DNA of 64,000 bases, from positions 3,170-67,169 of the forward strand of contig MGJK01000011.1 in assembly GCA_001794215.1 (NCBI GenBank), read 5' to 3'. A program made the translations under genes and the position numbers. Below the pieces are notes generated by a model, which saw only the letters and a list, made by a program, of their open reading frames with translations, had not been told where the DNA came from and ran no database searches. The stretch is from Candidatus Yanofskybacteria bacterium RIFCSPHIGHO2_01_FULL_44_24 (GTDB lineage: Bacteria; Patescibacteriota; Minisyncoccia; 2-02-FULL-40-12; GWA2-44-9). Each line of letters opens with the position of its first letter. The first letter of the stretch is position 1. Of the stretch, positions 1 to 57,835 are shown in pieces.

Positions 1-210
1 TTTCCTCTGGTTACTAAGATGTTTCACTTCACCAGGTATACTTCTCGCTTGCGCGAGATAATCATGGTTCACATGATTGGGTTTCCCCATTCGGTTATCT
101 CCGGATCAATGGTTGCTAGTCGCCTCCCCGAAGCTTATCGCAGACACGCCACGACCTTCATCGCCTTTTAGTGTCAAGGCATCCTCCGTACGCCCTTATG
201 AGTAATATCC
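1..210 (-). rRNA. rrl: 23S rRNA, 5' terminal part (gene continues beyond window start)
   Basis: Reverse complement of 1-200 matches conserved 23S 5' domain (GGATGCC...GGCGATGAAGG[A/T]CGTG...GATAAGC...GAAACATCTTAGTAACC). A GACCTCCCGCTGGAGGTC processing-stem-like hairpin lies at about 216-233. Confidence 0.8.
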
Positions 211-298: not shown

Positions 299-346
299 TC
301 CCGTTAGAAGTAGGTCGTTCTTAAACGACCGGTAGTTCTAATGGGA
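299..346. repeat. H-family hairpin element copy 1 (TIR TCCCGTTAGAAGTAG / degenerate TAGTTCTAATGGGA), about 80 nt upstream of the 23S 5' end
   Basis: Shares terminal inverted repeats with elements at 2906-3023 and 5944-6058. Inner GTCGTT-CTTAAA-CGAC hairpin. Confidence 0.55.
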
Positions 347-447
347 TTATTTACCCGCTATCTATTTACTATTGTTAAAATACTTTCCTCGGTAACCAGT
401 GTCTAAATCCTTAAAGATTCAATCATCGGTTACAGAAAATACCCACG

Positions 448-553
448 CCCCATCTGGGGTCAAGCTACATACTATATACTTTATTAATTTTTGCAAATCC
501 GCCTTCGGCTTTTTACCTGCTACTATCTGAATTATCGCCCAGATGAAGCGGGG
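448..553. ncRNA. X-family structured element copy 1 (CCCCATCTGG ... GCCTTCGGC ... GCCCAGATGAAGCGGGG)
   Basis: Three copies (448-553, 8758-8862, 16400-16499) with conserved outer stem CCAUCUGG/CCAGAUGG, central C(UUCG)G hairpin and 3' AGCGGG tail. Copy 2 carries a compensatory change (CUAUCUGG/CCAGAUAG). Confidence 0.5.
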
Positions 554-1147
554 TTCTATTGTTAGCAGCCACTCATTACATTCGTGGGCTAACAATGAAA
601 AAACCGCTCTCAAGCGGCATTAGTGAATACGCACAAAAAATGGACGTTATCAGCCGCTTTTAGTAAGTAATTGTAAGAATATATTCATCAGTTTTGTGCT
701 TATAAGTATATCAGATGGGCTATCCACAAGTCAACCCCTCACTTGAGGAGGATAGGTTCTGTCAGGCAAGGCTTCGGAACAGGACATAAGTAGTATTTCG
801 ATATATAAATTGCGGTTTGTTTATTTTGAGAACAGTTGCCTTGCTGATCCTCTTCAAGTGCAGGGGTCAATACCGTACCATAGGATAAGCGCTCACCCGG
901 GAAAAGACCTCGAAAACTACCCCTTCCTTTCAATTTCCCTGTCTCTTTTCTGAAGGTAAAAGACGATACTATATAATACCGCGATCAAGACATGAAGCGC
1001 CAAGTGTTTTAAGAATTTATGCTCTGATAATTTCTTATGAATCGCCGGCAGATTGTGAGATCCGCGAGCTATACGAGATTCGGTTGTTTTAGATTTATCC
1101 TCCATACTTTAATACATGATACCACATTTAGAAAAACTATTTATGCC

Positions 1148-1183
1148 CTTGACAAAAACCTGAGTGTTGGTTATCATATAAAA
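1148..1183 (+). promoter_or_regulatory. sigma70-like promoter (TTGACA-17-TATCAT) for the small membrane-protein gene
   Basis: CCCTTGACAaaaacctgagtgttggtTATCATataaaa, about 30 nt upstream of an AGGAG Shine-Dalgarno and the ATG at 1211. Confidence 0.5.
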
Positions 1184-1210
1184 ACTTGGGCCAATCAGAC
1201 AGGAGTCGTG

Positions 1211-1399
1211 ATGGATCAGGTCTTACTGGTACTGGATGTGATCTTTAATATTGTAGGCTACTTTCTTGGAGCGCTCGGTTTGATATTCGGGGTTGTTACA
1301 TCATGCCAGAGCGCATTCGTCAAAGAAGATAAGTTGGCCGATTTAGCGGAGTACACTTTTCTGATTCTTGCTGGATATGTTTTAATCCACTTACTGTAG
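1211..1399 (+). CDS. small hydrophobic membrane protein (62 aa)
   Basis: ATG at 1211 is preceded by AGGAG. Two predicted TM segments (LLVLDVIFNIVGYFLGALGLIFGVV; FLILAGYVLIHLL). Compact unit with promoter and terminator. Confidence 0.5.
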   Translation: MDQVLLVLDVIFNIVGYFLGALGLIFGVVTSCQSAFVKEDKLADLAEYTFLILAGYVLIHLL

Positions 1400-1425
1400 T
1401 CGATCTTCGGATCGACTTTTTAATT
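1400..1425 (+). terminator. rho-independent terminator hairpin GTCGATC-TTCG-GATCGAC + TTTTTA
   Basis: Perfect 7-bp stem with UUCG loop followed by a T-run, directly after the stop at 1399. Confidence 0.6.
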
Positions 1426-1437
1426 TACCGCTATGGT

Positions 1438-2211
1438 CTAACCGGTCAATACAGCCGGTTCCTTCTCCGTTATCGCCACAGTATGTTCAAAATGGGCGGC
1501 TAAACCGCCGTCTTTAGTTGTAAAAACAAATCCGTCATCGCCGTCTTTAATTTTCCAACTGCCCGTAACAACCATGGGTTCGATAGCAATGACCATGCCG
1601 GGAACAAGCTTTTCGCCCGCTCCCTCTTTTCCATAATTAGGCACCTGCGGAGATTCGTGAAGCTCCTTGCCTATGCCGTGACCTACAAGATCACGGACAA
1701 CGCCAAATCCCGCTTTCTCAACAAACTTCTGTATTGCCGCCCCTATATCCCCCAACCTGTTACCGACAACAGCCTTAGCTATTCCTATCTCCAAAGATTT
1801 TTTAGTTACGGAAATTAATTTTTTCTCAAGAGAGTACTTTCGGTTAAAAACCCTTGAGAGCTTACCGCCCTTCGTAACTAAAACCGTAACCGCAGAATCG
1901 GTATGAAATCCTTTATAGAGAACCCCGAAGTCCAACTTGCATAGATCGCCTTCTTTAAGCTTTCTTTCGGAAGGTACGCCGTGAACGATTTCATCATTTA
2001 CGGACACGCAAAGAACGGCAGGAAAATCACCGTACCCCAAAAACGACGGCTTAGCTCCGTATTTTAAAATAAGCTCGTTGGCGAGCTTATTTAAACTTCC
2101 GGTAGTAACCCCCGGCACAGTCTTCTTCTTTAATTCTTCGAGGATGGATTTCAGTATCCTACCGCCTTCTCTCATGGCCTCTATCTCTTTTTTCGTTTTA
2201 AGATTAATCAT
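1438..2211 (-). CDS. map: methionine aminopeptidase type I
   Basis: 257 aa with the pita-bread metal-ligand pattern (FHTD..., HGIGKELHE). Position after adk as in the spc/alpha cluster. Confidence 0.9.
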   Translation of the reverse strand: MINLKTKKEIEAMREGGRILKSILEELKKKTVPGVTTGSLNKLANELILKYGAKPSFLGYGDFPAVLCVSVNDEIVHGVPSERKLKEGDLCKLDFGVLYKGFHTDSAVTVLVTKGGKLSRVFNRKYSLEKKLISVTKKSLEIGIAKAVVGNRLGDIGAAIQKFVEKAGFGVVRDLVGHGIGKELHESPQVPNYGKEGAGEKLVPGMVIAIEPMVVTGSWKIKDGDDGFVFTTKDGGLAAHFEHTVAITEKEPAVLTG

Positions 2212-2905
2212 TCAAAGTATATTTGGACAATTCCTTCCAAACGTCATCGGCAACGCCCTGAATACTATTCTCTCCCGGAATATTTATCGACTCGATGCCT
2301 CTTTTTTCGACATATTCAATGGCAGGAACTGTTCTTTGCTCAAATTCACCAAGACGAACCTTAATAACGTCCGGGTTATCCAAGGTTCTTCTTATGACCT
2401 TGCCTCCGTCTTCGGGACAAATGGACGGATTGGTCTTGGCAACTTCCGGATCGATAGGATGGCTGTTTTTCTGACAAAAAAGTCTTAGACTGTTTCTCTT
2501 CATCGATTCGCCTCCCGATACATGAAGCTTGAAAAGCACTATAGCATCTTTACCGCCGAAGGATTCAAGCTTAGGAATCTCCTGTTCAGCTTCGGGAAGA
2601 GTTCTCGGAGATCCGCTGAATATTATTCCTTTGACTCCGGAGTCAACAAGCTTTTGAACCGCTTCATTTACGACTCCGGCTACCCAATGCGGAGTTAACA
2701 GGATGCCATTATCCCACATATTCTTTTCTTTGATCATATCTTCGTAATCAGGATCTTCCGGCTTAGTATTCCTGAACTTTTCTTCAAGCGCCTGAGTGCT
2801 TTTGAAAATAGTATATCCGATCTTCGGAGCAAGAATGGCAGCCTGGGTATCTTTCCCGGATCCGATCGGCCCCATAAAAATAATAAATTTCTTTCGTAAA
2901 TTCAT
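2204..2905 (-). CDS. adk: adenylate kinase (long form with Cys-containing LID insertion)
   Basis: P-loop GPIGSGKDTQA and the GIIFSGSPRTLPEAE motif (compare GFPRT). Position secY-adk-map. Confidence 0.85.
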   Translation of the reverse strand: MNLRKKFIIFMGPIGSGKDTQAAILAPKIGYTIFKSTQALEEKFRNTKPEDPDYEDMIKEKNMWDNGILLTPHWVAGVVNEAVQKLVDSGVKGIIFSGSPRTLPEAEQEIPKLESFGGKDAIVLFKLHVSGGESMKRNSLRLFCQKNSHPIDPEVAKTNPSICPEDGGKVIRRTLDNPDVIKVRLGEFEQRTVPAIEYVEKRGIESINIPGENSIQGVADDVWKELSKYTLND

Positions 2906-3023
2906 CCAGTTAGAAGTAGCCCCGCCGAGGTCCTTTCGCGGAGTGGTCTCCTGGCCGTGCTTTAGCCGGCCGAGGAACTCCGTCGGACTCGCGACTTCGT
3001 CGCGAGCGAGACTTCTAACGGGA
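2906..3023. repeat. H-family hairpin element copy 2, directly 5' of the adk start codon
   Basis: Terminal inverted repeats CCAGTTAGAAGT ... ACTTCTAACGGGA around a GC-rich inner structure (CTCGCGAC-TTC-GTCGCGAG, GGAG-TGGT-CTCC). The 3' arm ends at the base before ATG. Confidence 0.55.
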
Positions 3024-3091
3024 TCAATAAATTCATATTATCAGATCATCCATAAAAAGCCAGATACTAACCGAAAATAAAAGCCCCCAAA

Positions 3092-3448
3092 TTATAGGAG
3101 CTTTACGATAGCAGGAGAGGAGGGAAGGAAGTGCTTACCTTCTTGTTTATACAGCTCAAGAGACCATGCCTGAATTTGACCAGTAATAAAGCGTTCTAAT
3201 TCTTCAGGATTTTCAGCCCGAAAAGATGCGGACATCATCTGGCTGTGAGCTTGCAGGTTGTCCAGCGGTCCAGAGATTGAAGTAAAAATTACATAGATAA
3301 AGAACATGATCCCGCCCCTCGCCTCGATAACCCACGCTCGGATATTACTACAAACTATATTTGGGGTAAAGTACATAGGATTTTTGATCATCTCTTTTTG
3401 CCTAAAATAAAATGCCCTACGAAATGGGCACTTTAAATATACGGCCAA
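3092..3448 (-). CDS. hypothetical protein (doubtful ORF in the secY-adk spacer)
   Basis: 118-aa ORF only. Overlaps the predicted secY terminator hairpin (GCCC-TACGAAAT-GGGC at about 3400-3430). Composition partly typical of AT-rich non-coding DNA. Confidence 0.2.
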   Translation of the reverse strand: MAVYLKCPFRRAFYFRQKEMIKNPMYFTPNIVCSNIRAWVIEARGGIMFFIYVIFTSISGPLDNLQAHSQMMSASFRAENPEELERFITGQIQAWSLELYKQEGKHFLPSSPAIVKLL

Positions 3449-3454
3449 AAAGCA

Positions 3455-4717
3455 CTAGTACTCGTACATAGAGAGCTGGGCATCCACCTGCTTCATGGTT
3501 TCCAAAGCCACTGAAACAACGATTAATATCGAGGTGCCTCCAACCTGAAGAGCCGTAATACCGGTGAAGCCCTGAACAATATTCGGTAATACCGCTATCA
3601 CTCCCAAAAATATAGCTCCGACCAAGGTAACTCGATTCAATAAGTGATTAAGAAATTGAGCCGTCATCGGTCCGGGCCTGATACCGGGGATATATCCGCC
3701 TTGTTTCTGAATGTTTTCTGAAATAGATTTAGGATCAAAGGTAATCGCGGTGTAGAAATACGTAAATAGGACGACTAAGAGGAAGTAAAACATGGAATAC
3801 CAGACTTGGGATTGCAAAAAACCGTTAACTATCTGAGAAATTCTTGAAATTACGGCGATATTTGTTCCGGCCAAAAAATTAGCAATCATGCCCGGAAAAA
3901 GCAGAATGGATAAGGCGAATATGATCGGGATAACGCCGGCATTATTGACCCTCATCGGTAAATAAGTAGATACCCCGCCATAAACCTTGAATCCCCTGAC
4001 TCTTCGAGCATAGTTAACCGGAATGTTCCTTTGGGCCTCGGATATATAAACTACACCGACAACAACTATAAGGGCGACTATGATAAAGCCGGCGTAAGAG
4101 AACAGATCTTGGCCCGATGTGTAAGAAAAGAGAGCCTGTTGAACGCTTCCCGGGAAACCAGCCACTATGCCGGCTAAAATCAAAAGGGATGTTCCATTTC
4201 CAAGATTTTTTTCGGTGATCAATTCACCAAGCCACATAAAGAATATGCTACCAGCAGTAATCACGAGCAGTGTTGAAGCCCATTCTACCATGCTTAAGCT
4301 GTCGATAACTCCTTGCCGGGATAAAAGAACCAGAAAACCATATCCCTGAAGAATAGCCAAAGGAACGGTCAACACCCTTGAATACTGATTAAATCTCGCC
4401 CGACCGGCTTCTCCTTCGTATTTATACATCTGCTCCATGGCCGGGAATATCATCGTTAAGAGCTGCATGATAATTGAGCTGGTGATATAGGGACCCAAAC
4501 CGAGCATGCCTATCGAAAGGGCGGAAAATGACCCTCCTGTGAAGGCGCTGATCAGGCCGAAAAATTGATTCTGGCTCAAAAAATCCTGAAGCCTCGAAGC
4601 ATCTATCGCCGGAATAGGAATATTCGAGATAATCCTGAAAACAACCAAAAGTCCGAAGATAAATAAAACCTTATTTCTTAATTCCGGTCTTTTAAAAATT
4701 TGAAGAATACGCTGCAT
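3455..4717 (-). CDS. secY: preprotein translocase subunit SecY
   Basis: 420 aa with 10 TM segments and typical SecY motifs (GLGPYITSSIIMQLL). Position after rplO. Confidence 0.95.
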   Translation of the reverse strand: MQRILQIFKRPELRNKVLFIFGLLVVFRIISNIPIPAIDASRLQDFLSQNQFFGLISAFTGGSFSALSIGMLGLGPYITSSIIMQLLTMIFPAMEQMYKYEGEAGRARFNQYSRVLTVPLAILQGYGFLVLLSRQGVIDSLSMVEWASTLLVITAGSIFFMWLGELITEKNLGNGTSLLILAGIVAGFPGSVQQALFSYTSGQDLFSYAGFIIVALIVVVGVVYISEAQRNIPVNYARRVRGFKVYGGVSTYLPMRVNNAGVIPIIFALSILLFPGMIANFLAGTNIAVISRISQIVNGFLQSQVWYSMFYFLLVVLFTYFYTAITFDPKSISENIQKQGGYIPGIRPGPMTAQFLNHLLNRVTLVGAIFLGVIAVLPNIVQGFTGITALQVGGTSILIVVSVALETMKQVDAQLSMYEY

Positions 4718-4820
4718 TCGAGTTTATAAAGTTTGTAAAGTTATAATGTTTATAAAGTTTTAGTGAATCTGAGCCTTACTTATTAACTTTATTAACTTTA
4801 AGAACTTGATGAACTTTTAA

Positions 4821-5291
4821 CTATTTGATTGTCCCTCCGGCTTTCAGAACTTTGTTTTTGGCTGATTTGGAGAACTGAAAACCTTCGAACTGCATTTTTT
4901 TCTTAAGCTCTCCCCCGCCAAGTATCTTTACCCCGTTTGCAATCTTATCGATCAATCCTTTTTCTTTAAGCAGACCGGGCGTAACGACATCTACGTCAAA
5001 TTGATTGAAAAATCCTAAATTTAAAACTCCGGGCTTTGTATGCCTGAGCTGAAAATACCGGTGCTTTGGATGGGGATTGGAACCTCCGGGCTTTTTTGAG
5101 GCTCCTCTTTGCTTGGGAAACAGCTGCCAAAGCCTGCTATCGCCGCCCCTGAAACCTGGCTTGACTCCTGCGCCGGCCCGGGATTTTTGACCTTTCATAC
5201 CTTTGCCGGAGTATGTCCCGCGTTTACCGCCACGGCCGACTCTTTTTCGGTTTTTTCGAAGCGTTTTAGATTTTAATTGTGATAAATCCAT
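4821..5291 (-). CDS. rplO: 50S ribosomal protein L15
   Basis: N-terminus KNRKRVGRGGKRGTYSGKGMKGQKSRAG typical of L15. Confidence 0.9.
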   Translation of the reverse strand: MDLSQLKSKTLRKNRKRVGRGGKRGTYSGKGMKGQKSRAGAGVKPGFRGGDSRLWQLFPKQRGASKKPGGSNPHPKHRYFQLRHTKPGVLNLGFFNQFDVDVVTPGLLKEKGLIDKIANGVKILGGGELKKKMQFEGFQFSKSAKNKVLKAGGTIK

Positions 5292-5374
5292 AGTCGTTTA
5301 ACTAAAGTTAAAATTTAAAAATCAAAATGCAAAATTCCTGTAACTCATTAAAATCTTTGATTTTAATGAGCATC

Positions 5375-5944
5375 CTAAACTTTTAACTTTTCGCTTTTAA
5401 TTTTTAATTTCTTTAAGGCTTCTATCGTAGCCATGGCAATATTGATCTTATTATTTGTTCTTTCGATGAGCTTTCCGGTCAATGCAGTTATGCCTAAAAG
5501 CTTAGCGACAACTCGAACGGGTCCGCCGGCTTTTACTCCACCGATCGTCGGCTTTAATAAAACTACGGCACTATTGTATTTGGCTTCAACTTGATAAGGA
5601 ATGGTACCCTTAACAATCGGGATTGTTATAAGATTTTTCTTAGCCCTGTTGAAAGCTTTTTGGACTGACTGAGCGACGTCTCTTCCTTTATTAATACCTA
5701 TGCCAACCCTTCCTTTGCCGTCTCCGATGACAATAGTCGCTCGAAAACTAAATCTCTTGCCGCCCTTAGTAACCCTTGTTACCCTGGCAATATCAATGAC
5801 TTTCTGTTCAAACTCCGATTTAGCATCGCCGGAATGCCCTCCTCTGCGAGGTCCGCGTCCACCCCTGCCTCCTCTTCCGCCCATTCTGTTCCTATTGTCA
5901 CCCCTGGGGACATTGCCTATATTATTTTGTTTAATTGGTTCCAT
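5375..5944 (-). CDS. rpsE: 30S ribosomal protein S5 with N-terminal Gly/Arg-rich extension
   Basis: S5 dsRBD and C-terminal domain (VTRVTKGGKRFSF..GDGKGRVG..). Start moved to the internal Met (MEPIKQ) because the upstream 8 codons lie inside the H3 repeat. RGGRGGRGPRRGG extension. Confidence 0.85.
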   Translation of the reverse strand: MEPIKQNNIGNVPRGDNRNRMGGRGGRGGRGPRRGGHSGDAKSEFEQKVIDIARVTRVTKGGKRFSFRATIVIGDGKGRVGIGINKGRDVAQSVQKAFNRAKKNLITIPIVKGTIPYQVEAKYNSAVVLLKPTIGGVKAGGPVRVVAKLLGITALTGKLIERTNNKINIAMATIEALKKLKIKSEKLKV

Positions 5945-6058
5945 CCCGTTAGAAGTAGTGCAAAGCACCCACTACCACCGTGCGGTGCGATACATTTCTT
6001 ATTATTGTTTTACCGATATTCATGTTATTCAACCACGTTAGGGGTACTTCTAACGGGA
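5944..6058. repeat. H-family hairpin element copy 3, filling the entire rplR-rpsE spacer
   Basis: TCCCGTTAGAAGTAG ... TACTTCTAACGGGA terminal inverted repeats (14/15 complementary). About 85 nt variable interior. Confidence 0.55.
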
Positions 6059-6062
6059 TTAA

Positions 6063-6422
6063 TTAAATTTTAAGCCCTCCCGCTCTCAATCCTTCAACTA
6101 AAGCCTTTATCCGACCATGATATTTAGATCCTCCCCGGTCAAGCACGGCTTCTTTGATTCCCATTTCTTTGGCTTTTTCAGATAACGCCTTAGCAATCGA
6201 GGAGGCCTTCTCGGTCTTAGTACCCTTTGCTTTATTGCTTTTTGAAACTGAACCCTTGATACTCAAGATTGTCTTACCGGTCTGATCATCAATAAATTGA
6301 ACTAAAAGATTTCTGTTACTCTTAAAAACAGATATCCGGGGACGCGCCTTGGTGCCGGCTACCTTGGCTCTTACTCTCTTATGGCGCCTCATTCTATTTA
6401 ATTTTTTATTTTCCGGTTTCAA
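6063..6422 (-). CDS. rplR: 50S ribosomal protein L18
   Basis: 119 aa. Conserved L18 core (RLSVFKSNRNLLVQFIDD..). TTG start. Confidence 0.85.
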   Translation of the reverse strand: MKPENKKLNRMRRHKRVRAKVAGTKARPRISVFKSNRNLLVQFIDDQTGKTILSIKGSVSKSNKAKGTKTEKASSIAKALSEKAKEMGIKEAVLDRGGSKYHGRIKALVEGLRAGGLKI

Positions 6423-7004: not shown

Positions 7005-7126
7005 AAGCTTCGCTAAATTAAAAACGTAAAACTAAAAATTTAAAACTCTGGAAATCCAAAATTTTCCTTGGAGAAATTTTGGATAACATTAATTTTGCAC
7101 TTTTCGCTTTGCATTTTGAATTTTTA
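7005..7126. repeat. A-type AT-rich intergenic repeat (rpsH-rplF spacer)
   Basis: GCTTCGCTAAATTAAAA...CAAAATTTTCCTTGGAGAAATTTTG...TTTGCATTTTGA module shared with 7529-7645, 10653-10768, 11408-11529, 13410-13527 and 14630-14745. Confidence 0.7.
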
Positions 7127-9178: not shown

Positions 9179-9257
9179 TAAAACAGTTAAAAGTTCGTCA
9201 AGTTCTTAAAGTTTTTAAAGTACTTTATGAACTTTACAAACCTTATAAACTTTAAAC

Positions 9258-9623
9258 TCATACTACTTCTTCCGCTAATGATGCTATCGTAGCAAATCCC
9301 CTCTCTTTTATCTCTCTGGGTATGGGTCCGAATATTCTACCGCCCTTGGGCTCTTTGCCGTCTAATATGACCACCGCATTATCATCAAAACGGATATAAG
9401 TTCCGTCTTTTCTCCTGAAAGCCTTTCTCTGTCTTACTACAACCGCTCTTAGGACATCCTTCTTCTTAACCGCCTTTCTCGGCTCAGCCACTTTAACTGA
9501 AACGACTACAATGTCGCCAAGTTCGGCATACCTTCTCTTTGATCCTCCAAGCACCTTAAAGACCCCCACTTTCTTGGCTCCTGTATTATCTGCGACATTT
9601 ACTATTGAACGTAATTGCAGCAA
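9258..9623 (-). CDS. rplN: 50S ribosomal protein L14
   Basis: [18 protein letters not shown]... canonical L14. Confidence 0.95.
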
Positions 9624-10652: not shown

Positions 10653-10768
10653 GGCTTCGCTAAATTAAAAGTTAAAAGTTAAAAATGAAAAATTCAGGAA
10701 ATTCAAAATTTTCCTTGGGGAAATTTTGAATAACATTAATTTTGATTTTTGATCTTTGCATTTTGATA
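10653..10768. repeat. A-type AT-rich intergenic repeat (rpsC-rplP spacer)
   Basis: Over 90% identical to the copies at 13410-13527 and 14630-14745. Contains the perfect palindrome CAAAATTTTCC-TTGG-GGAAATTTTG and ends with GCTTCGCTAAATT abutting the start codon. Confidence 0.75.
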
Positions 10769-11407
10769 TTACTTATCAAAGACTTCACCTTTATATATCC
10801 AAACCTTAACGCCTACCGTGCCATATGTAGTATGGGCGGTAGCTTTAGCAAAATCGATATTAGCCCTAAGCGTCTGCAGCGGTAAATTCCCCTCTTCAAG
10901 ATGCTCCGATCTTGCTATTTCTGAACCGTCAAGACGGCCGCCCATCTGAAGCTTGGCTCCCTTGGCTTGCTTATTAGACAATATCTTCGCAAGGGTCTGC
11001 TTAAGAATTCGCCGATAGGGAATCCTCTTCTCCACCTGGTCAACCATAGATTCGGCCATTATCTGAGCTGATAACTCTGGGCTTTTTATCTCTTGAATCT
11101 CTATCCTTACCGAAACTTTATCTTTAAGAAGTCGCTGAACGGCTTTTTTAATATCTTCCACTCCTCCACCGCCTCGTCCTATCAAAAGACCGGGCCTGGC
11201 AGTATGAATAATTATACTTAAGGCATCACTGCCCCTTTCAATCTCTATCTTATCAATACTCATGTTCCTGAGCTTTGATTCTAAAAAGGTTCGGACTTTC
11301 AAATCGTCTTTAAGATAAGGGACGTATTTTCGCCCACCAAACCATCGGGACAGCCAGTCCTTATTAATGCCGAGTCGTAATGATGTTGGTGATATTTTTT
11401 GTCCCAT
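10769..11407 (-). CDS. rpsC: 30S ribosomal protein S3
   Basis: 212 aa with KH domain and S3 C-terminal domain (MGQKISPTSLRLGINKDW). Confidence 0.95.
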   Translation of the reverse strand: MGQKISPTSLRLGINKDWLSRWFGGRKYVPYLKDDLKVRTFLESKLRNMSIDKIEIERGSDALSIIIHTARPGLLIGRGGGGVEDIKKAVQRLLKDKVSVRIEIQEIKSPELSAQIMAESMVDQVEKRIPYRRILKQTLAKILSNKQAKGAKLQMGGRLDGSEIARSEHLEEGNLPLQTLRANIDFAKATAHTTYGTVGVKVWIYKGEVFDK

Positions 11408-11529
11408 AATCGCTTCGCTAAATTTAAAATTTAAAAATCATAGTTAAAAATTATTGAAATTCAAAACTTTGTTAACAAAGTTTTGAGTAACCTGAATTTT
11501 ACATTTTGACATTTGCATTTTGATATTCT
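11408..11529. repeat. A-type AT-rich intergenic repeat, divergent copy (rplV-rpsC spacer)
   Basis: ATCGCTTCGCTAAATTTAAAA...CAAAACTTTGTTAACAAAGTTTTG...TTTGCATTTTGAT. Confidence 0.65.
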
Positions 11530-13409: not shown

Positions 13410-13527
13410 CGCTTCGCTGAATTAAAAATTAAAAGTTAAAAATGAAAAATTCAGGAAATTCAAAATTTTCTTTGGGGAAATTTTGAATAACATTAATTTT
13501 GATTTTTGATATTTGCATTTTGATCTT
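13410..13527. repeat. A-type AT-rich intergenic repeat (rplW-rplB spacer)
   Basis: Near-identical to 10653-10768 and 14630-14745. Confidence 0.75.
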
Positions 13528-14629: not shown

Positions 14630-14745
14630 CGCTTCGCTAAATTAAAAATTAAAAGTTAAAAATGAAAAATTCAGGAAATTCAAAATTTTCCTTGGGAAAA
14701 TTTTGAATTTCATTAATTTTGATTTTTGATCTTTGCATTTTGATC
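14630..14745. repeat. A-type AT-rich intergenic repeat (rplC-rplD spacer)
   Basis: Near-identical to 10653-10768 and 13410-13527. Confidence 0.75.
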
Positions 14746-15354
14746 TTATTGTGTTTGGACCATAACTACTCCCCCATTATTACCGGGAACCGCTCCCTTT
14801 ACCGCTAAAAGTCCTTTTTCCTCATCTATCGCCACAACTCGAAGACCTCTGACGGTAAATTTATCATTTCCCATCCTACCGGGCATCCTCATACCTTTTA
14901 AAGTATGCTGAGGAAATCTTTGTCCGATTGAACCGGCATGACGCATTACAGAATGATGGCCGTGACTGGCAGGCATACCGGAGAATCCATGTCTTTTTAC
15001 CACGCCCTGAAAACCTTTTCCTTTAGTCATCCCCGTAACCTTCACCAAATCGCCGACGGCGAAGAGAGAAACATTGAGCTTATCTCCGCGCTTTAGCTCT
15101 CCGGGAGTAGTTCTGAATTCTTTTAAGACTTTGAAAGTTCCCAAGTCCTTGGTATGTCCTTTCTGAGCCTTGGTCACGTTTTTTTCCTTTCTTTTTCCGA
15201 ATCCAACCTGAACACCTTCGTATTTATCTTTTTCCTTCGTTCTAATCTGAACCACAGTATTCGTTTCCGCCTCAATAACCGTCACCGGAGTGACGTCACC
15301 TTTATCATCATATATCTGGGACATGCCCATTTTTTTACCTAATATGAACTTCAT
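14746..15354 (-). CDS. rplC: 50S ribosomal protein L3
   Basis: 202 aa. GMTKGKGFQGVVKRHGF... canonical L3. Confidence 0.95.
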   Translation of the reverse strand: MKFILGKKMGMSQIYDDKGDVTPVTVIEAETNTVVQIRTKEKDKYEGVQVGFGKRKEKNVTKAQKGHTKDLGTFKVLKEFRTTPGELKRGDKLNVSLFAVGDLVKVTGMTKGKGFQGVVKRHGFSGMPASHGHHSVMRHAGSIGQRFPQHTLKGMRMPGRMGNDKFTVRGLRVVAIDEEKGLLAVKGAVPGNNGGVVMVQTQ

Positions 15355-18790: not shown

Positions 18791-20926
18791 TCATTTCTTC
18801 CCCTCAACTATCAACTGGGCGATATTGTTCGGAACGGGCTCATAATGATCGAACTCCATATTAAACGTCCCCCGGCCCTCTGTCAACGACCTCAGGGCCG
18901 TAGCATATCCGAACATTTCAGATAGCGGAACACGCGATTCGATAACCTTAAGATTAAGGGGGCTTCGGTCATTAATGCTCAATATCTGTCCCCTTCTTGA
19001 AGCTAAATCTCCGGTTGATTCGCCCAAGCATTTTTCAGGAGTTATTATCTCAACTTTCATAATAGGTTCAAGTAAAATAGGCTTAGCTCTTTTGGCGGCC
19101 TCCTGCAGGGCGGTCGAGGCGGCAATCTTGAAGGCCACCTCTGAAGAATCGACTTCGTGGTATGAACCGTCATAAAGAGTCACCATCATATCAACCAAAG
19201 GAAAACCGGCAACAACTCCCTTATCCATAGCTTCACGAACTCCTTTTTCGGAAGGCGTGACAAACTCCTGAGGAATAGATCCTCCTTTTATGGCATTAAC
19301 GAATTCGTAGCCCTGTCCCCTTTCCTTGGGTTCGACTCTCAACCAAACATGGCCATACTGACCGCGACCGCCGGACTGTCTGATGTATTTACCCTCCGCT
19401 TCGGCCGTGCCGGAAATTGTTTCTTTATAAGCAACCTGAGGACGTCCGACGTTCAATCCAACGCCGAATTCCCTTTTCATCCGATCAACGATTATTTCTA
19501 AATGAAGCTCTCCCATACCCGATATGATAGTTTCTGCAGTTTCTTCATCGCTTCTTATCCTGAAAGTAGGATCCTCATCGGAAAGTTTTCTGAGCGCAAG
19601 ACTCATTTTTTCCTGATCAGCCTTGGTCTTGGGTTCCGCCCTCAAAGATATGACGGGTTCAGGAACATCTATACCCTCTAAAACTACGGGAACAGAGGGA
19701 TCGCAGAGAGTATCGCCTGTCTTAGTGGCTTTCAGACCAACCGTCGCCGCTATATTACCGGCGTATATCTCCTTTATTTCTTCTCTTTCATTGGCGTGCA
19801 ATCTGACAATACGGCTTATGCGCTCCTGCTGGCCGGTTCGGGTATTTAAAACATAAGAGCCGGAAGCAAGCTTTCCGGAATAAACACGAAAGAAAGTAAG
19901 AGATCCGACGAAAGGATCGGTAGCCGTTTTGAAAGCTAATGCGGCAAACGGAGCATTGTCATCAGGCGAAATAGTCATATCCTTTCCGGTCTTCTGATCA
20001 ACGGCATTGGTCGCTGAAATATCAACTGGGGAGGGCAAATAATACGCTACTGCATCTAAAACAAGCTGGACGCCCTTATTCTTTAGCGCTGATCCGCAAA
20101 GAACGGGGAAAATTTTATTTTCGATAGTCGCCCTACGAATAATTTTCCTCAATCTTTCGACAGAGATCTCCTTTCCATCGAGGTATTCAGCCATAGCTTC
20201 ATCGTCCTGCTCGACAATCCTTTCAATAGCAGCAGCTCTTTCTTGCTTAGCCTTATCAGCTAAATCGGCCGGAATAGCACCTTTGACTATCTTCTCACCC
20301 TTATCGCCCTCAAATGTGTAATATTCCATTGTCAAGAGATCGACGATTCCCTTGAACTGATCCTCGTGACCGTCGGGAATCTGAAGCTTCACCGCATGAG
20401 GTGATAACCTTTCTAAAATTGATTGAAATGAACGGTCGAAAGATGCACCAAGACGATCAAGCTTATTGATAAAACAAACCCGGGGAACCTTATAATCATC
20501 CGCGTACCTCCAGTTAGTTTCAGATTGGGGTTCAACTCCGGCGACACCGTCAAAAACGACAACCGCACCGTCGAGGACCCGCAAAGAACGCTTAACTTCA
20601 ATTGTAAAATCGATATGCCCGGGAGTATCTATAATGTTCAGCTTGACCTTCTCGTCTTCCCGCCCTTGGCGAGGCTCGCCTTCAGCGGCCTTGTTCTTGG
20701 CATCCGTTGGAGACCAATAGGCAGTCGTGGCAGCAGCAGTAATAGTAATTCCCCTCTCCCGCTCCTGTTCCATCCAATCCATTACCGTATCACCCTCGTG
20801 AACTTCTCCTATCTTATGCGAAATTCCTGTATAAAAAAGAATCCTCTCCGAGGTTGTGGTTTTGCCCGCATCAATATGGGCAATGACGCCGAAGTTTCTA
20901 ATTTTATTTATTGGATAATCCGCCAT
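18791..20926 (-). CDS. fusA: elongation factor G
   Basis: 711 aa. AHIDAGKTTTSERIL, DTPGHIDF, five-domain EF-G architecture. Confidence 0.97.
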   Translation of the reverse strand: MADYPINKIRNFGVIAHIDAGKTTTSERILFYTGISHKIGEVHEGDTVMDWMEQERERGITITAAATTAYWSPTDAKNKAAEGEPRQGREDEKVKLNIIDTPGHIDFTIEVKRSLRVLDGAVVVFDGVAGVEPQSETNWRYADDYKVPRVCFINKLDRLGASFDRSFQSILERLSPHAVKLQIPDGHEDQFKGIVDLLTMEYYTFEGDKGEKIVKGAIPADLADKAKQERAAAIERIVEQDDEAMAEYLDGKEISVERLRKIIRRATIENKIFPVLCGSALKNKGVQLVLDAVAYYLPSPVDISATNAVDQKTGKDMTISPDDNAPFAALAFKTATDPFVGSLTFFRVYSGKLASGSYVLNTRTGQQERISRIVRLHANEREEIKEIYAGNIAATVGLKATKTGDTLCDPSVPVVLEGIDVPEPVISLRAEPKTKADQEKMSLALRKLSDEDPTFRIRSDEETAETIISGMGELHLEIIVDRMKREFGVGLNVGRPQVAYKETISGTAEAEGKYIRQSGGRGQYGHVWLRVEPKERGQGYEFVNAIKGGSIPQEFVTPSEKGVREAMDKGVVAGFPLVDMMVTLYDGSYHEVDSSEVAFKIAASTALQEAAKRAKPILLEPIMKVEIITPEKCLGESTGDLASRRGQILSINDRSPLNLKVIESRVPLSEMFGYATALRSLTEGRGTFNMEFDHYEPVPNNIAQLIVEGKK

Positions 20927-41367: not shown

Positions 41368-41976
41368 TTAGTAGGAATATTCGACCTCAGAAATCGCTGT
41401 AAACCTCGAGAACGGCCAAGCTCTTAAAAACGCCCGTCCGGTTATAAAATGTTCAGCTAACGGACCCCACCTTCTTGAATCGGAGCTTTGCAGGCGATTA
41501 TCCCCTAAAACATAAAATTCCTTATCCCCTAATTTAACCTTGGAACTGCCCAGGGTTCTTTGATGGCCGTCCAAATAATCCTCTTTCAGATAAAAACCGT
41601 CGGGATACCGCTCGTTATAAATTTTAACTTTGTCGTTAAGAATCTCCACGCTTTCTCCGGGCAAGCCTATGATTCTCTTTATGAAAAATTGAGAGGGATC
41701 CTCGGGGTATCTGAATATTATCACGTCGCCCCTCGCCGGATCTTTGAACCGATAGCTTATCTCGTCAATCAGCAGGTAATCTCCGTCATCAAAACTCGAC
41801 TCCATTGATGCTCCTTTTACAAAAAAAGGCTGTACCAGATAATACCTGATTGGCAGAATTATAGCAAGCGAAATGATCACGACTTTCAGGGCCTCCCAAA
41901 CAACCAAAAAAATGTTATTTTTCGGTTTCATCGGCGTATCTTCTGAATGGTTATCATGGAAATCCTGCTCAGCCAT
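41368..41976 (-). CDS. lepB: signal peptidase I
   Basis: Catalytic Ser (GASMESS) and Lys box. GDNRLQSSDSR motif. Confidence 0.85.
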   Translation of the reverse strand: MAEQDFHDNHSEDTPMKPKNNIFLVVWEALKVVIISLAIILPIRYYLVQPFFVKGASMESSFDDGDYLLIDEISYRFKDPARGDVIIFRYPEDPSQFFIKRIIGLPGESVEILNDKVKIYNERYPDGFYLKEDYLDGHQRTLGSSKVKLGDKEFYVLGDNRLQSSDSRRWGPLAEHFITGRAFLRAWPFSRFTAISEVEYSY

Positions 41977-47883: not shown

Positions 47884-48909
47884 TTAAATCTTAGGCGATT
47901 CTATTTTCCCGGCATCGGCGCTGTCGCCTATCTCAACGACATTCTTCACCCTATCCACCATAAGAGAAAGGCGTTTTTCTGAGTCATCATAAGCTGATTT
48001 GGAATCTGAGATATGCTTGCCGAGTTTTCTAAAGTTTTCCGATAATTTCTCTCCGTCAGTAGAAATCTGGGCTAAGCGCTTGATAATATCCTTGGTCTGC
48101 TTGCTGAACTGAACGTCTTTGAACCAATGCATAATGGCTGATATAGAAAGAGCAAAAGTATTGGGTGAAACCATGAAAACCTTCTTACTGCGGGCATAGT
48201 TGGGTATGTCGGCGTCCTTCACATTATTAATCAGCTCGTAATACACTGTCTCGGCCGGTATATACATAAGGGCCAGATCAGCCGTTCCTTCTGACGGCAG
48301 GATATACTTGGATGATATTTCATCGACTTTCTTTTTGACATCCGAGAAGAAGGCCTTACGAAAAACCTCTTTGTTTATTTCATTATCCGCGTTAACCATT
48401 TTCTCAAAATTTTCCCAGTTAAACTTGGCATCTATCGGTAAAATAATTCCATTCGGCAGTTTCAAAATTGCATCTACCGCCTCGCCCGATTTGAAATAAT
48501 ATTGTATTTCATATAAATCCTTCGCAAAGTACTGAGACAGCGCCGCCTCAAGAGACATTTCACCCCATATACCCCGAAGCTTGGGCGATTTAAAAATATT
48601 CTGAAAAGAGGAAACATCTCTGACGGATTCGTGAACACGCTTTAAATTTTCCTGAAGCATGGTGATCCCCTGAGTAAAACCGTGCACTTGCTGATGTACG
48701 CTCAGGGTGGCCCTTTCGGCCGCCTGGCGGTTTCTCTCAAGCTGTTCGTTGATAAGATTGGAGAATGAGTCGAGTCTTTGATGCAGGACGGCGTATTCAT
48801 TCACGTTTTCCTTTTTTCTCGATTTTAAAAGATAGTAGAGATTGATTACGAGAGTAACCAAAACCGCTCCGGAAACGATAATGGATAGGATTACGATGGG
48901 GTTAGTCAT
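47884..48909 (-). CDS. rmuC: DNA recombination protein RmuC
   Basis: N-terminal TM, coiled coil, and C-terminal PKLRGIWGE...LPNG..ILPIDAKF motifs of the RmuC family. Confidence 0.8.
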   Translation of the reverse strand: MTNPIVILSIIVSGAVLVTLVINLYYLLKSRKKENVNEYAVLHQRLDSFSNLINEQLERNRQAAERATLSVHQQVHGFTQGITMLQENLKRVHESVRDVSSFQNIFKSPKLRGIWGEMSLEAALSQYFAKDLYEIQYYFKSGEAVDAILKLPNGIILPIDAKFNWENFEKMVNADNEINKEVFRKAFFSDVKKKVDEISSKYILPSEGTADLALMYIPAETVYYELINNVKDADIPNYARSKKVFMVSPNTFALSISAIMHWFKDVQFSKQTKDIIKRLAQISTDGEKLSENFRKLGKHISDSKSAYDDSEKRLSLMVDRVKNVVEIGDSADAGKIESPKI

Positions 48910-54275: not shown

Positions 54276-54312
54276 TGTATTTTTGGGAAAGAAAATTTTT
54301 AATCAAAACCAC

Positions 54313-55809
54313 ATGAAATACATACTTTACGCTCGCAAGAGCACCGAGGATGAAGACAGACAAATTTTAAGCATTGAGGCCCAAGTCTTTGAGTTAAAAG
54401 AATTTGCCGCCAAAGAAAAACTTGAAATTGTCGCCTCTTTTCAAGAGGCAAAAACTGCCAAAGAACCTGGGCGAATTAAATTCGCAGAAATGTTGTCATT
54501 GATTGAAAAGGGTAAGGCCGAGGGCATACTTTCATGGAATCCAGACAGATTGGCAAGAAACAGCGTTGACGGCGGAAGGATAATTCACATGATTGATCGC
54601 GGCTTGATTAAGTCATTGAAATTTCCAACGTTTTGGTTTGAACCGACACCACAGGGTCTATTTATGCTCCAAATTGCTTTTGGCCAAAGTAAATATTACG
54701 TGGATGCTTTACGCGAGAATGTAACGCGTGGAATGAGGCAAAAAGTGAGAAACGGCGTATGGCCAAGCAAAGCTCCGCTCGGCTATCTCAATAATCCGAA
54801 AACCAGAGGAATTGATATTGACAGAGAAAAAGCCCAGAAAGTTAAAAAGATTTTTGAACTTTACGCCACCGGAAGCTACAACTTGCGAGAATTGGCCGAG
54901 TGGTGCAAGCGAATAAATCTTAAAAGCAATTTGGAGTGGAACATCGCCATCTCTCAAGTCCATAAAATACTCCAAAATGTTTTCTACATTGGCTTAATGA
55001 AATACAAAGGTGAAATCTACGAAGCAACCCACGAGCCGTTAATTTTAAAGAAACTTTTTGATAAAGTGCAGGAAATTATGCGAGAGAAAGGAAAACCGCA
55101 AAAAGTGAAGAAACATAATTTTGCTTTTCTTGGCTTAATGAAATGTCCGTGTTCTGCTACGATAACCGCTGAAAAGAAAATCAAGCCAAGTGGCAAAGAA
55201 TATATTTACTATCGTTGCACAAAAAAGAAAGGACCTTGCCAAGAAAAGCACTTTTTGCGGCAGGAAGAACTATACACCCAAATCAAATCTTTTCTTCAAA
55301 AAGTTTCTTTGTCGAGCCACGACACCAAGAAGGTTTTATCTGAATTAGACAAAGAGGAATCACAAGCAAAAGAACAATCAAAAATCACTGTTCAAAATCT
55401 CAAGGCCAGTTTTTCTGAAATTGAAAAGAAGCTTGAAAAACTTCTCGATGTCTATTTGGCCGAAACTATTACCGCCGAAGAATACGTTTCGCGCAAAGAA
55501 AAATTGGTCAAACAAAAGGTCGGTCTGCAAGAGCAAATCCGAGATTTTGAACAGAAAGGCCTGTCGTGGCTCGAACCGGCTCGTGAGTTCGTTTTATCCT
55601 TAAATCAAGCCTCAAAACTGCTTGAATCAGAAAACAAAACAGAAATGACAACATTTCTCAAAAATATCGGCTCGAACTGCATTTTACAGAATCGCCAACT
55701 GATTTTTTCGCCCAAAATTCAATACGAATTGGCCGCCGAGCAAAGCGAGGCGGCTTCCAATGACTTGCGGTTTTCTAAAATGTGGACCCAAGCGGACTCG
55801 AACCGCTGA
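54313..55809 (+). CDS. large serine recombinase (resolvase/invertase catalytic domain, recombinase domain, zinc ribbon and coiled coil)
   Basis: N-terminal YARKSTEDEDRQ...SIEAQ catalytic region. CPCS...C..C zinc ribbon at about aa 290-320. Start set at MKYILY. The last 36 codons lie within the IR-B right arm. Confidence 0.8.
   Translation: MKYILYARKSTEDEDRQILSIEAQVFELKEFAAKEKLEIVASFQEAKTAKEPGRIKFAEMLSLIEKGKAEGILSWNPDRLARNSVDGGRIIHMIDRGLIKSLKFPTFWFEPTPQGLFMLQIAFGQSKYYVDALRENVTRGMRQKVRNGVWPSKAPLGYLNNPKTRGIDIDREKAQKVKKIFELYATGSYNLRELAEWCKRINLKSNLEWNIAISQVHKILQNVFYIGLMKYKGEIYEATHEPLILKKLFDKVQEIMREKGKPQKVKKHNFAFLGLMKCPCSATITAEKKIKPSGKEYIYYRCTKKKGPCQEKHFLRQEELYTQIKSFLQKVSLSSHDTKKVLSELDKEESQAKEQSKITVQNLKASFSEIEKKLEKLLDVYLAETITAEEYVSRKEKLVKQKVGLQEQIRDFEQKGLSWLEPAREFVLSLNQASKLLESENKTEMTTFLKNIGSNCILQNRQLIFSPKIQYELAAEQSEAASNDLRFSKMWTQADSNR
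55689..55785. repeat. IR-B right arm (overlaps the recombinase C-terminus and 3 nt of tRNA-Ala)
   Basis: Reverse complement is identical to 54179-54275. Confidence 0.85.
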
Positions 55810-55855
55810 CCCCCTCATTGCAAATGAGGTGCTCTACCAGCTGAGCTATGGGCCC
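55783..55855 (-). tRNA. tRNA-Ala (anticodon TGC)
   Basis: Minus strand GGGCCCATAGCTCAGCTGGTAGAGCACCTCATTTGCAATGAGGGGGTCAGCGGTTCGAGTCCGCTTGGGTCCA. Cloverleaf folds by hand. Confidence 0.9.
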
Positions 55856-55884
55856 ACCCTTGCTATCGAGGATCCTCGATTTCA
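55856..55884. repeat. direct repeat 1 containing the perfect 16-bp palindrome ATCGAGGATCCTCGAT
   Basis: GGCCCACCCTTGCTATCGAGGATCCTCGAT (including the tRNA 5' end). Repeated at 56243-56278. Confidence 0.7.
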
Positions 55885-55920
55885 CTATTATATTAAAATT
55901 GTAAATCGGGACAAACAAGG

Positions 55921-55948
55921 CGCTCTACCAGCTAAGCTAACGGCCCCT
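55921..55948 (-). pseudogene. tRNA 5'-half fragment (tRNA-Ala-like acceptor and D-arm only)
   Basis: Minus strand GGGGCCGTTAGCTTAGCTGGTAGAGCGC matches the tRNA-Ala 5' half, then diverges. Confidence 0.5.
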
Positions 55949-55960
55949 GCACCCAGAAAG

Positions 55961-56215
55961 CTATGCCAAAGAGTTTTTAATTCTTCGCTTTAGCTGGGTA
56001 TGTGCCTGCGAAAACCTTTTTAAGTTTTCTTCCCGATATTTGGCATCTTTCTCGGATTTATAATACTCGCAATATATCAACTCGTATGGACCCTTATTCT
56101 TGGTGGCTGTACTTTGGTTTTTATTATGTTCTGCTAATCTTCTCTCCAGGTTGGCAGTATAGCCTATATACAACGAGTTATCTTTGAGGCTTTTGATTAA
56201 ATATATACAGAACAT
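55961..56215 (-). CDS. GIY-YIG nuclease domain protein (84 aa)
   Basis: IYLIKSLKDNSLYIGYTANLERRLAEHN: GIY...YIG, R, E/H/N spacing. Confidence 0.75.
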   Translation of the reverse strand: MFCIYLIKSLKDNSLYIGYTANLERRLAEHNKNQSTATKNKGPYELIYCEYYKSEKDAKYREENLKRFSQAHTQLKRRIKNSLA

Positions 56216-56242
56216 AATATTAGCTTCCTGGGTGAGGGGCTA

Positions 56243-56278
56243 ACGGCCCATCATTATTTATCGAGGATCCTCGATCTG
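56243..56278. repeat. direct repeat 2 with the same 16-bp palindrome
   Basis: GGCCCATCATTATTTATCGAGGATCCTCGAT. Confidence 0.7.
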
Positions 56279-56362
56279 ACTACTGCAGTCGGTGTGTTTT
56301 ACAAAAAATGTAAAATCGTTTATATTTTATCACAGATTTTTAACATTTAAAAGCGGGGCTCC

Positions 56363-56719
56363 GTGAGCGAAAATCAGAAAGATTCACCCATTACAATCAC
56401 TGAAAAAGCGGCTGAAAAACTTCTCAAGCTGATAAAGGATAAGGATTTAACTCCCGATAAAGCATTCCTCAGAGTTTTCATACACGGAGGCGGATGCTCC
56501 GGATTCCAGTATGGCCTGATGCTCGAAGGCAGTCCTTCGGAAAACGATAAAATTTTTGAATCGAACGGAGCAAAAATCGTAATTGATCCTATCAGCCTCA
56601 GATATCTCAAGGGTGCGGAAGTAGATTTATCAAATGACCTGATGGAAAGTTTCACGATAAAGAATCCTAATGCCAAGTCAACTTGCGGCTGCGGACAGTC
56701 ATTCCAGCCCGAAAATTAA
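56363..56719 (+). CDS. erpA: iron-sulfur cluster insertion protein (HesB/IscA/ErpA family)
   Basis: GGGCSGFQY ... CGCGQSF conserved Cys triad. Confidence 0.85.
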   Translation: MSENQKDSPITITEKAAEKLLKLIKDKDLTPDKAFLRVFIHGGGCSGFQYGLMLEGSPSENDKIFESNGAKIVIDPISLRYLKGAEVDLSNDLMESFTIKNPNAKSTCGCGQSFQPEN

Positions 56720-56727
56720 GCAACTCA

Positions 56728-57705: not shown

Positions 57706-57761
57706 AAAAGCACATTAGTATAGAAAAACCCTCCGCCGAGGATTTTTCTATACTACTAATG

Positions 57762-57835
57762 TGCGCATGCCTGGATTTGAACCAGGGACCTCGTCATTAT
57801 CAGTGACGCGCTCTAACCAGCTGAGCTACATGCGC
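57762..57835 (-). tRNA. tRNA-Ile (anticodon GAT)
   Basis: Minus strand GCGCATGTAGCTCAGCTGGTTAGAGCGCGTCACTGATAATGACGAGGTCCCTGGTTCAAATCCAGGCATGCGCA. Confidence 0.9.

Follow-up and report, generated by a model that had tools for sequence, protein, structure and literature searches.

Three hairpin-forming sequences in a 64,000-nucleotide stretch of contig MGJK01000011.1 from Candidatus Yanofskybacteria bacterium RIFCSPHIGHO2_01_FULL_44_24 (hereafter the window) are, with a probability that we put at about 85%, copies of a family of non-autonomous DNA transposons, that is, transposable elements of the miniature inverted-repeat type (MITEs). Two of these copies, which we call H-elements, end exactly on the start codons of adk and rpsE, and the third lies in the leader of the 23S rRNA gene. 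A first-pass annotation of the window had considered either a MITE or a conserved RNA processing or regulatory stem. The former is borne out by hundreds of copies elsewhere, by 4-bp target-site duplications and by presence/absence polymorphism between related genomes. The placement of hairpins on the ATG of two essential genes is thereby explained by insertion geometry, and no new regulatory device is needed.

Three H-elements in the window

Six arms matching TCCCGTTAGAAGTA with at most two mismatches are present in the window, against a chance expectation of 0.35, and six were reached in none of 100 shuffles. The arms form three inverted pairs, confirming that the three elements with shared termini are real. 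Written with the outermost T/A pair included, the arms read (T)CCCGTTAGAAGT; they occupy positions 299–312/333–346, 2905–2918/3010–3023 and 5944–5957/6045–6058 and delimit elements of 48, 119 and 115 bp (copies 1, 2 and 3). The stretches between the 14-nt arms (20, 91 and 87 nt) are mutually unrelated, as had been noted, but they are not free "cargo", since elements 2 and 3 have relatives in the family. All three copies fold into long hairpins on both strands, with folding z-scores of −4 to −6.

Copy 3 (5944–6058, 115 bp with the outermost T/A pair) fills the intergenic gap between the genes for L18 and S5 and has perfect 13-bp inverted repeats, TCCCGTTAGAAGT and ACTTCTAACGGGA. Copy 2 (2905–3023, 119 bp) has the arms TCCAGTTAGAAGT and ACTTCTAACGGGA and belongs to a 69-nt subfamily. 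Copy 1 (299–346, 48 bp) is short and degenerate, with two arm mismatches and no recognisable duplication; its reported position before the 23S gene is correct, at 89 nt upstream of the 5′ end (position 209, minus strand). On the minus strand, the ATG of adk (2903–2905) and that of rpsE (5942–5944) each begin with the terminal A of the 3′ arm, which is the last base of the element, and the mRNA strand at both genes reads …CUACUUCUAAC(G/U)GG-AUG. The adk start is supported by the length of the N-terminus of Adk in a relative, and the rpsE start by the 189-aa S5 protein, which is translated from 5944 and is the called gene in public assemblies. Identical elements are found in four assemblies from the Rifle aquifer (L121, L122, L129 and L130; JGI 3300002502 and others). 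By its S5 homologues, the organism falls in the Parcubacteria/Paceibacterota.

Target-site duplications and filled and empty sites

A single 14-nt arm is too short for scanning sequence collections, giving at least 120 single matches in viral contigs, which is the chance level. We therefore searched with the two-arm pattern CCGTTAGAAGT…ASTTCTAAYNGG, requiring near-perfect arms. This retrieved at least 119 metagenome loci with an interior of 36–96 nt and at least 120 loci in species-representative genomes with an interior of 5–65 nt. The same pattern, run as a control for chance with two interior ranges against 2.9 million viral contigs, gave 0 and 1 matches (the one in IMG/VR), which argues that the elements are not phage-borne. 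The search beyond the window thus produced hundreds of copies, from which 272 non-redundant ones of 27–164 bp (mode 60–79 bp) were analyzed. All counts given here are among the matches listed, and copy numbers, size range and end conservation are biased by the demand for near-perfect arms.

The flanks of these copies have a common geometry, in which a tetranucleotide D and a base x precede the element proper and a base x′ and D follow it. D is identical on both sides (positions −5 to −2 on the left against +2 to +5 on the right) in 165 of the 272 copies, and its mean identity is 3.13 of 4, compared with 1.99 for shuffled flanks and 1.89 for an inverted control. D varies from site to site, also within one subfamily. 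The test for target-site duplications is positive for the family, with the window copies themselves being degenerate. Two other descriptions of the flanks were rejected. A 6-bp duplication (RTNNAY) is contradicted by the outer positions, which are complementary between the two sides (94%) and not directly repeated: the outer base is directly repeated in 49 and 42 of 85 copies with a perfect duplication (58% and 49%). Extension of the palindrome in place of a duplication is contradicted by the inverted control, which equals the shuffled value. The complementary bases x and x′ are therefore the outermost pair of a 13-bp inverted repeat.

Direct support for insertion comes from three orthologous pairs of filled and empty sites. 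At one site, locus L251 has the arrangement CGAG-C-element-G-CGAG, L305 carries a different element with T/A ends and likewise a duplicated CGAG, and L239 has a single CGAG. At another, TTCA is duplicated around the element in L248 and the site is empty in L362. The first of these sites lies in conserved non-coding sequence (…GTGAGCGACGAG…), filled differently at L251 3152–3196 and L305 3371–3415 and empty at about L239 1988–2103, which indicates an insertion hot spot or a replacement. Nested copies were seen in L135, L170 and L331, and L243 contains a tandem array of the form element-GTGAAC-element-GTGAAC-element, in which neighbours share one copy of the duplication. Both patterns are consistent with successive insertions, each of which restores the target. 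The L243 array (395–1078), in which GTGAAC separates four or more H-elements, stands directly upstream of a 16S gene (5′ end at 1–54, minus strand), a parallel to the window copy before 23S. A comparison of L270 with L285 for long-term retention was uninformative, the two loci being near-identical.

Empty sites at rpsE and adk in the closest relative

Comparison of orthologous loci, which the first-pass annotation had proposed, showed polymorphism at both gene-start copies in the window; it rests on one close relative. In this closest relative recovered (loci L123–L128), S5 is 82% identical to that of the window and the gene order from rplC to map is syntenic, and no arm was found anywhere in L123–L128 (fetched loci of up to 17 kb). 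The relative lacks the element between the L18 stop and the S5 ATG, which are only 9 nt apart: its junction reads TAA-ATAATTCAT-ATGGAACCAATTAAACAAAATAAT, and that of the window TAA-TTAA-T[CCCG…CGGG]A-TGGAACCAATTAAACAAAATAAT. Upstream of adk, the relative has a terminator, an extended −10 sequence (TGGTATTAT), 9 nt and then the ATG, making the gene near-leaderless without an element. The corresponding order in the window is TGATAATAT, 11 nt, the element and ATG. Read from the sequences, both gene-start copies are insertions relative to L123–L128, or else deletions in that relative.

The flanking tetranucleotides of the window copies are ATAA/CAAG (copy 1), TTGA/TGAA (copy 2) and TTAA/TGGA (copy 3). 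On the mRNA strand, the downstream duplication position of element 3 (5940–5943) reads TGGA and its upstream partner (6059–6062) TTAA; that of element 2 (2901–2904) reads TGAA and its partner (3024–3027) TTGA. Since both duplications are degenerate, the upstream duplicate ATGs are gone and the elements are identical in four assemblies, the window copies are probably old insertions that are fixed in the population.

Insertion at start codons, −35 boxes and open frames

The targets are far from random. Relative to the 4-mer background, D is enriched 26-fold for TGAA, 17-fold for TTGA, 11-fold for TTTA, 10-fold for TGGA and 2.7-fold for TTAA, and TATA was not seen (enrichment 0); a purine tends to precede the target and a pyrimidine to follow it. 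With D being TGAA or TGGA, the right junction becomes CGGG-(A/G)-TGAA (or TGGA), i.e., a rebuilt ATG or GTG. Such a codon, assigned as a start by open reading frame (ORF) length only, stands immediately after the element in 86 of the 272 copies and begins an ORF of 60 codons or more; of 58 cases tested, 42 retain the duplicated original ATG 6 nt upstream of the element. First start codons make up only 5% of the RTGNAY sites in the same loci. With D being TTGA, the right junction reads G-TTGAC, a rebuilt −35 box; TAnnnT follows 16–18 nt past it in 19 of 35 TTGA copies, compared with 7% of control sites. Examples of rebuilt promoters include gTTGACA-17-TATAAT and, in one case, a promoter in front of a tRNA gene.

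The frame that starts at the duplicated upstream ATG is open at the left arm (ATG-AAY-CCC-GTT-AGA-AGT) and has, as derived from the sequence, three outcomes at the right arm: it runs on into the gene if the length is divisible by 3, it stops at the TAA of CTTCTAAC, 4 nt before the ATG, or it reads GGA-TGA, overlapping the ATG. Among element lengths, multiples of 3 are overrepresented (74/36/32). Two of the three frames through both arms are free of stops (PVRS…TSNG and PLEV…LLTG), so that in-frame insertion into coding sequence can be tolerated, and 29 of the 272 copies lie inside frames that are open for at least 50 codons on both sides and read in one of these two ways. A XerC/D-like recombinase in L143 is one of these. 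Segments of the PVRS…TSNG type, either inserted or extending the N-terminus, were noted in predicted proteins of the L143 ORF from +2872, in L334 (4882–7266, minus strand) and in L148 (9864–11108, plus strand). Orientation relative to the asymmetric target is biased (41 vs 17), and within the 69-nt subfamily all seven start-adjacent copies have the same orientation to the gene.

Based on these data, we propose the following mechanism. A transposase supplied in trans would bind both ends, cut the target with a 4-nt stagger at R/T-K-D-A/Y (slashes bounding the tetranucleotide) and insert the element, and gap repair would then duplicate the four target bases. Where the final A or G of the element meets a TGAA or TGGA duplication, a start codon would be rebuilt with the original second codon next to it. 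Because the junction rebuilds ATG or GTG, an insertion in a start codon leaves the gene intact directly after the element. Likewise, insertion into TTGAC would restore a −35 box that is correctly spaced from its −10 box. Target preference together with purifying selection in small, gene-dense genomes would concentrate the surviving copies at "safe" sites. In the window, this would amount to two insertions in start codons (rpsE and adk) and one in the 23S leader; two copies end at an ATG because insertion rebuilds the signal at the downstream end of the element. The exact abutment on both start codons that had been described is thus correct, but it reflects insertion geometry and not a dedicated translational operator.

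These properties show a way for a transposon to persist in highly compact genomes: it can rebuild the start codons and −35 boxes that it enters, or keep the frame open within genes. They also bear on annotation, since H-elements give rise to false N-terminal extensions (PVRS…/…TSNG M), duplicate start codons, inflated sets of intergenic "structured RNA" candidates and protein inserts of 20–40 residues.

Anatomy and distribution of the family

H-elements have 13-bp terminal inverted repeats, YCCCGTTAGAAGT, of the form Y-CCCGTTAGA-AGT. The core CCCGTTAGA is invariant, sister subfamilies included. Arm positions 10–12 vary by sister subfamily (AGT, GGT, GAT, GGC, GAC, AGC) and always match between the arms, and 252 of 269 copies have a complementary outermost pair, either C/G or T/A. 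The interior (15–140 nt) is non-coding and rich in hairpins, with no ORF confined to the element. By interior, the copies divide into many subfamilies. In the largest, with 24 members (69–74 nt), the interior forms a three-way junction whose hairpins keep their pairing through compensatory changes. Element 2 is a member of this 69-nt subfamily, with a 48-nt G+C-rich insertion in the loop of the second internal hairpin. The interior of element 3 shares 38 nt at 87% identity with L146_2640_2756, from another genome with a different gene downstream. No relatives of element 1 were found by interior sequence. Arms of sister subfamilies (CCCGTTAGAGGT, …GAGAT, …GAGGC, …GAGAC and …GAAGC), each with a matching partner arm, occur in L144, L179, L209, L216, L225, L227, L238, L263 and L340; the family is therefore wider than the search pattern.

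Among the matches listed, about 65 hosts belong to Patescibacteria (Saccharibacteria, Yanofsky-, Nomura-, Doudna-, Berkel- and Levybacteria, Paceibacterota and others) and about 26 to Planctomycetota, with fewer in Omnitrophota, Ratteibacteria, Elusimicrobia, Nitrospirae, and Delta- and Gammaproteobacteria; host names were taken from the record titles of metagenome-assembled genomes (MAGs), some of which may be binning errors. One Nanoarchaeota contig of 1.1 kb also carries a copy and is possibly misbinned. The 69-nt subfamily consensus had no match in a plasmid collection, and no Rfam family was matched at gathering or permissive E-values by the window copies and eight small family loci. The literature searched contained nothing relevant on the end sequence or on MITEs in the Candidate Phyla Radiation (CPR). 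This large MITE family of many bacterial phyla, common to Patescibacteria (CPR), Planctomycetota and several other phyla, is apparently undescribed.

The hairpins at the RNA level

The hairpins must be transcribed, because copy 3 lies within an operon, copy 2 follows the inferred adk promoter and copy 1 follows promoter-like sites (463–436 and 405–377, minus strand). The inferred adk promoter is an extended −10-like sequence, TGATAATAT, read from the sequence at 3035–3043 (minus strand), 11 nt upstream of element 2 and just downstream of a terminator-like site (3104–3080, minus strand); with this placement, the adk mRNA would carry the hairpin at its 5′ end. In mRNA, the 13–15-bp stem would pair the A and U of the AUG, and an effect of the hairpin on expression of adk and rpsE is conceivable for this reason. 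Element 3 begins 4 nt downstream of the TAA of rplR (6063–6065, minus strand). This distance between stop and stem suggests termination-coupled opening, in which ribosomes terminating on L18 would open the stem beside the S5 AUG.

The first-pass annotation had remarked that adk and rpsE lack a Shine-Dalgarno sequence. This is correct but not special to these genes, since the genome hardly uses Shine-Dalgarno pairing: only 6 of 40 gene starts scanned between 1438 and 63969 have even a weak match. Transcribed hairpins would be tolerated because the organism initiates translation without such pairing. In several genes a −10-like box stands a few bases before the ATG (e.g., 18791–20926, 41368–41976 and 47884–48909), which suggests leaderless or very-short-leader mRNAs.

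Alternative explanations

Several points weigh against a MITE family. In 1.7 Mb of flanking sequence plus the window, no pair of arms 0.6–4 kb apart with a matching duplication encloses a transposase. Long arm pairs in L334, L270, L142 and L148 were rejected as autonomous elements because they enclose ordinary genes, and a relaxed search for core plus duplication returned only pairs of separate small copies. Clustering of 1263 flanking ORFs showed that only housekeeping families recur, with no recurrent transposase. With the ISEcp1 transposase as query, phmmer found no IS1380-like match at E ≤ 10 among 3418 ORFs from these 1.7 Mb and the window, a negative that covers close homologues in these regions, and none of 10 tested window ORFs is a DDE transposase, one being a large serine recombinase. 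Plain decay of a selfish element predicts neither the shared orientation of the seven start-adjacent 69-nt copies nor the compensatory changes in the internal hairpins, and the orientation bias toward the target is also unexplained by a purely selfish element. The three window copies have no intact duplication, so the case for their mobility draws on the family and on the sites that are empty in one relative. Ends of 12–13 bp that are identical across many phyla are unusual for MITEs, although the search pattern itself demanded near-perfect arms and the breadth of hosts depends on MAG assignments.

Some of these observations would follow if the hairpins were functional RNA, a translational operator or RNase site that masks the rpsE and adk AUG and marks the 23S leader and is conserved by a binding protein or nuclease. 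The stable fold, the pairing of the A and U of the AUG, the common orientation of the 69-nt copies to their genes, the covarying internal hairpins and the presence of copies upstream of rRNA genes all agree with this idea. However, neither orthologous site in the syntenic closest relative contains the element, and the family shows site-specific 4-bp duplications and empty sites. Copies also occur in either orientation, within coding sequences and upstream of promoters, where a copy before a −35 box lies outside the transcript of that gene. Nor does the gene-sense strand show a preference for G-U pairs: G-U versus A-C counts are 4 vs 8 in the interior of the 69-nt subfamily and 4 vs 9 in the 13-bp stems of start-adjacent copies, with no asymmetry, and folding energies are equal on both strands, giving no strand-specific signal. 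Element 1 even has an A·C mismatch on the rRNA-sense strand that is G·U on the opposite strand, and the hairpins have no Rfam family. We therefore consider an RNA stem, the other possibility raised in the first-pass annotation, highly improbable as the nature of the element.

Movement without a classical DDE transposase, as folded single-stranded DNA or by a single-copy host enzyme in the manner of REPIN (a paired repetitive extragenic palindromic (REP) element) and its RAYT, would account for the conserved structure together with the lack of an autonomous copy. It agrees with the missing partner in 1.7 Mb around about 270 copies, with arm positions 10–12 that always match across subfamilies, with internal hairpins that covary without strand bias and with the same ends across many phyla. 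HUH/Y1 single-strand transposition (IS200/IS605, RAYT) makes no target-site duplication and inserts beside a fixed short sequence. H-element tetranucleotides, in contrast, differ among copies of one subfamily and are duplicated at each site, and no GTAG-type REP head is present. Moreover, matched arms are equally expected if one protein binds both ends, and the flanks are a small part of each host genome, which makes the missing partner weak evidence. Such a route is very unlikely in our estimation.

A MITE family mobilized in trans remains our preferred explanation. Going further, the H-element might be a signal-regenerating transposon that actively selects start codons (A/TGAA) and −35 boxes (G/TTGA/C), its last base plus the duplication restoring the signal. 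Its folded structure, with matched arms and covarying internal hairpins, would then be needed for movement or host tolerance; it would spread across phyla by an enzyme that is possibly neither located between the ends nor a classical DDE transposase; and copies in genomes without Shine-Dalgarno sequences would perhaps have been co-opted to couple translation, e.g., of L18 to S5. We offer this fuller model as a speculation that is rather unlikely to hold as a whole. The mobilizing enzyme could be a transposase with short, sharply defined ends that acts across phyla.

Other features of the window

All genes around the three elements are on the minus strand: map (1438–2211), adk (2204–2905), secY (3455–4717), rplO (4821–5291), rpsE (5375–5944) and rplR (6063–6392). 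Between secY and adk, an ORF of 118 aa (3092–3448, minus strand) has no Pfam match; the slot is variable, the relative having an unrelated 114-aa ORF there. A second, A+T-rich hairpin family with arms of 41–54 nt that are 70–78% complementary occupies most gaps in the ribosomal protein operon (4718–4820, 5292–5374, 7015–7123, 9185–9258, 10661–10771, 11426–11521, 13425–13521 and 14638–14748), and its 3′ ends (…TTTAATTTAGCGAAGCG) reach the ATG of the next gene, like the H-element copies.

The 23S gene (1–209, minus strand) is preceded by map and ~1.2 kb of non-coding sequence, and neither a 16S gene nor spacer tRNAs lie upstream; tRNA-Ile and tRNA-Ala are 55 kb away (55782–57835, minus strand). 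Longer assemblies (L121 16000–16230; L129 12686–13225) have an A+T-rich insertion in the 5′ domain of 23S and a LAGLIDADG ORF ~2.5 kb downstream of the 23S 5′ end. The large serine recombinase (54283–55809, plus strand), which has Resolvase, Recombinase and zinc ribbon domains, is on the strand opposite to its neighbours. Inverted repeats (54011–54036/54279–54304) accompany it, and its ORF, stop included, overlaps tRNA-Ala (55782–55855, minus strand) by 28 nt. The recombinase may serve an integrated element as its integrase.

Comparison with known systems

The H-element hairpin is reminiscent of the attC sites of integrons, which are imperfect 57–141-bp hairpins whose centre varies between conserved outer boxes that contain GTT…AAC. 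This identification was rejected because the boxes come in the opposite order, with GTTAGAA…TTCTAAC on either strand compared with RYYYAAC…GTTRRRY; one consensus position also fails in each box, and the ribosomal protein operon context and site-specific 4-bp duplications differ as well. REP and REPIN sequences are likewise short intergenic hairpins with conserved arms, a variable middle and no transposase between the arms, the gene that mobilizes a REPIN lying elsewhere in the genome. A REPIN leaves its target unduplicated, begins with GTAG and is tied to one species with a RAYT of its own. H-elements, in contrast, duplicate 4 bp, have arms that begin with YCCCG without a GTAG head, and share their ends from one phylum to another.

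The T. ni piggyBac end, CCCTAGAAAGATA, resembles the H-element end CCCGTTAGAAGTA. In common with piggyBac and IS1380, H-elements duplicate 4 bp, have inverted repeats about 13 bp long and carry a terminal CCC. PiggyBac duplicates TTAA and has 13–14-bp repeats with CCC/GGG as first bases, and IS1380 is its distant prokaryotic relative (PMC10140906). TTAA, however, is the target in only 3 of 165 H-element copies, an extra Y/R pair precedes CCC, and the ISEcp1 end (CCTAGATTCTACG) is not similar to that of the H-element. Because TTAA is not the preferred target, we make no assignment to piggyBac/IS1380 and regard the relationship as a lead only.

Rickettsia palindromic elements (RPEs) are palindromic repeats of ~100 bp that are tolerated in frame in protein genes and in non-coding DNA, and the 29 H-element copies in open frames recall them. 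The two have no sequence similarity and different hosts. H-elements have clear 4-bp duplications and sharp 13-bp ends and, unlike RPEs, lie mostly at gene starts or promoters and not inside genes.

Parallels are also seen in bacterial MITEs such as Correia/CREE of Neisseria, RUP of Streptococcus pneumoniae, Nezha, Chunjie and MITEAba12, which are likewise small, non-coding and multi-copy, with terminal inverted repeats, target-site duplications and co-transcription with neighbouring genes as hairpins. Chunjie has reportedly been seen inside an operon without breaking it. H-elements differ from these MITEs in their ends and in duplicating 4 bp at T-K-D-A, compared with TA in Correia and RUP. 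Whereas these MITEs are each confined to one genus, H-elements occur in many phyla and have no known parent insertion sequence, and they stand apart in that about a third of their copies lie at a rebuilt start codon and many others at a rebuilt −35 box.

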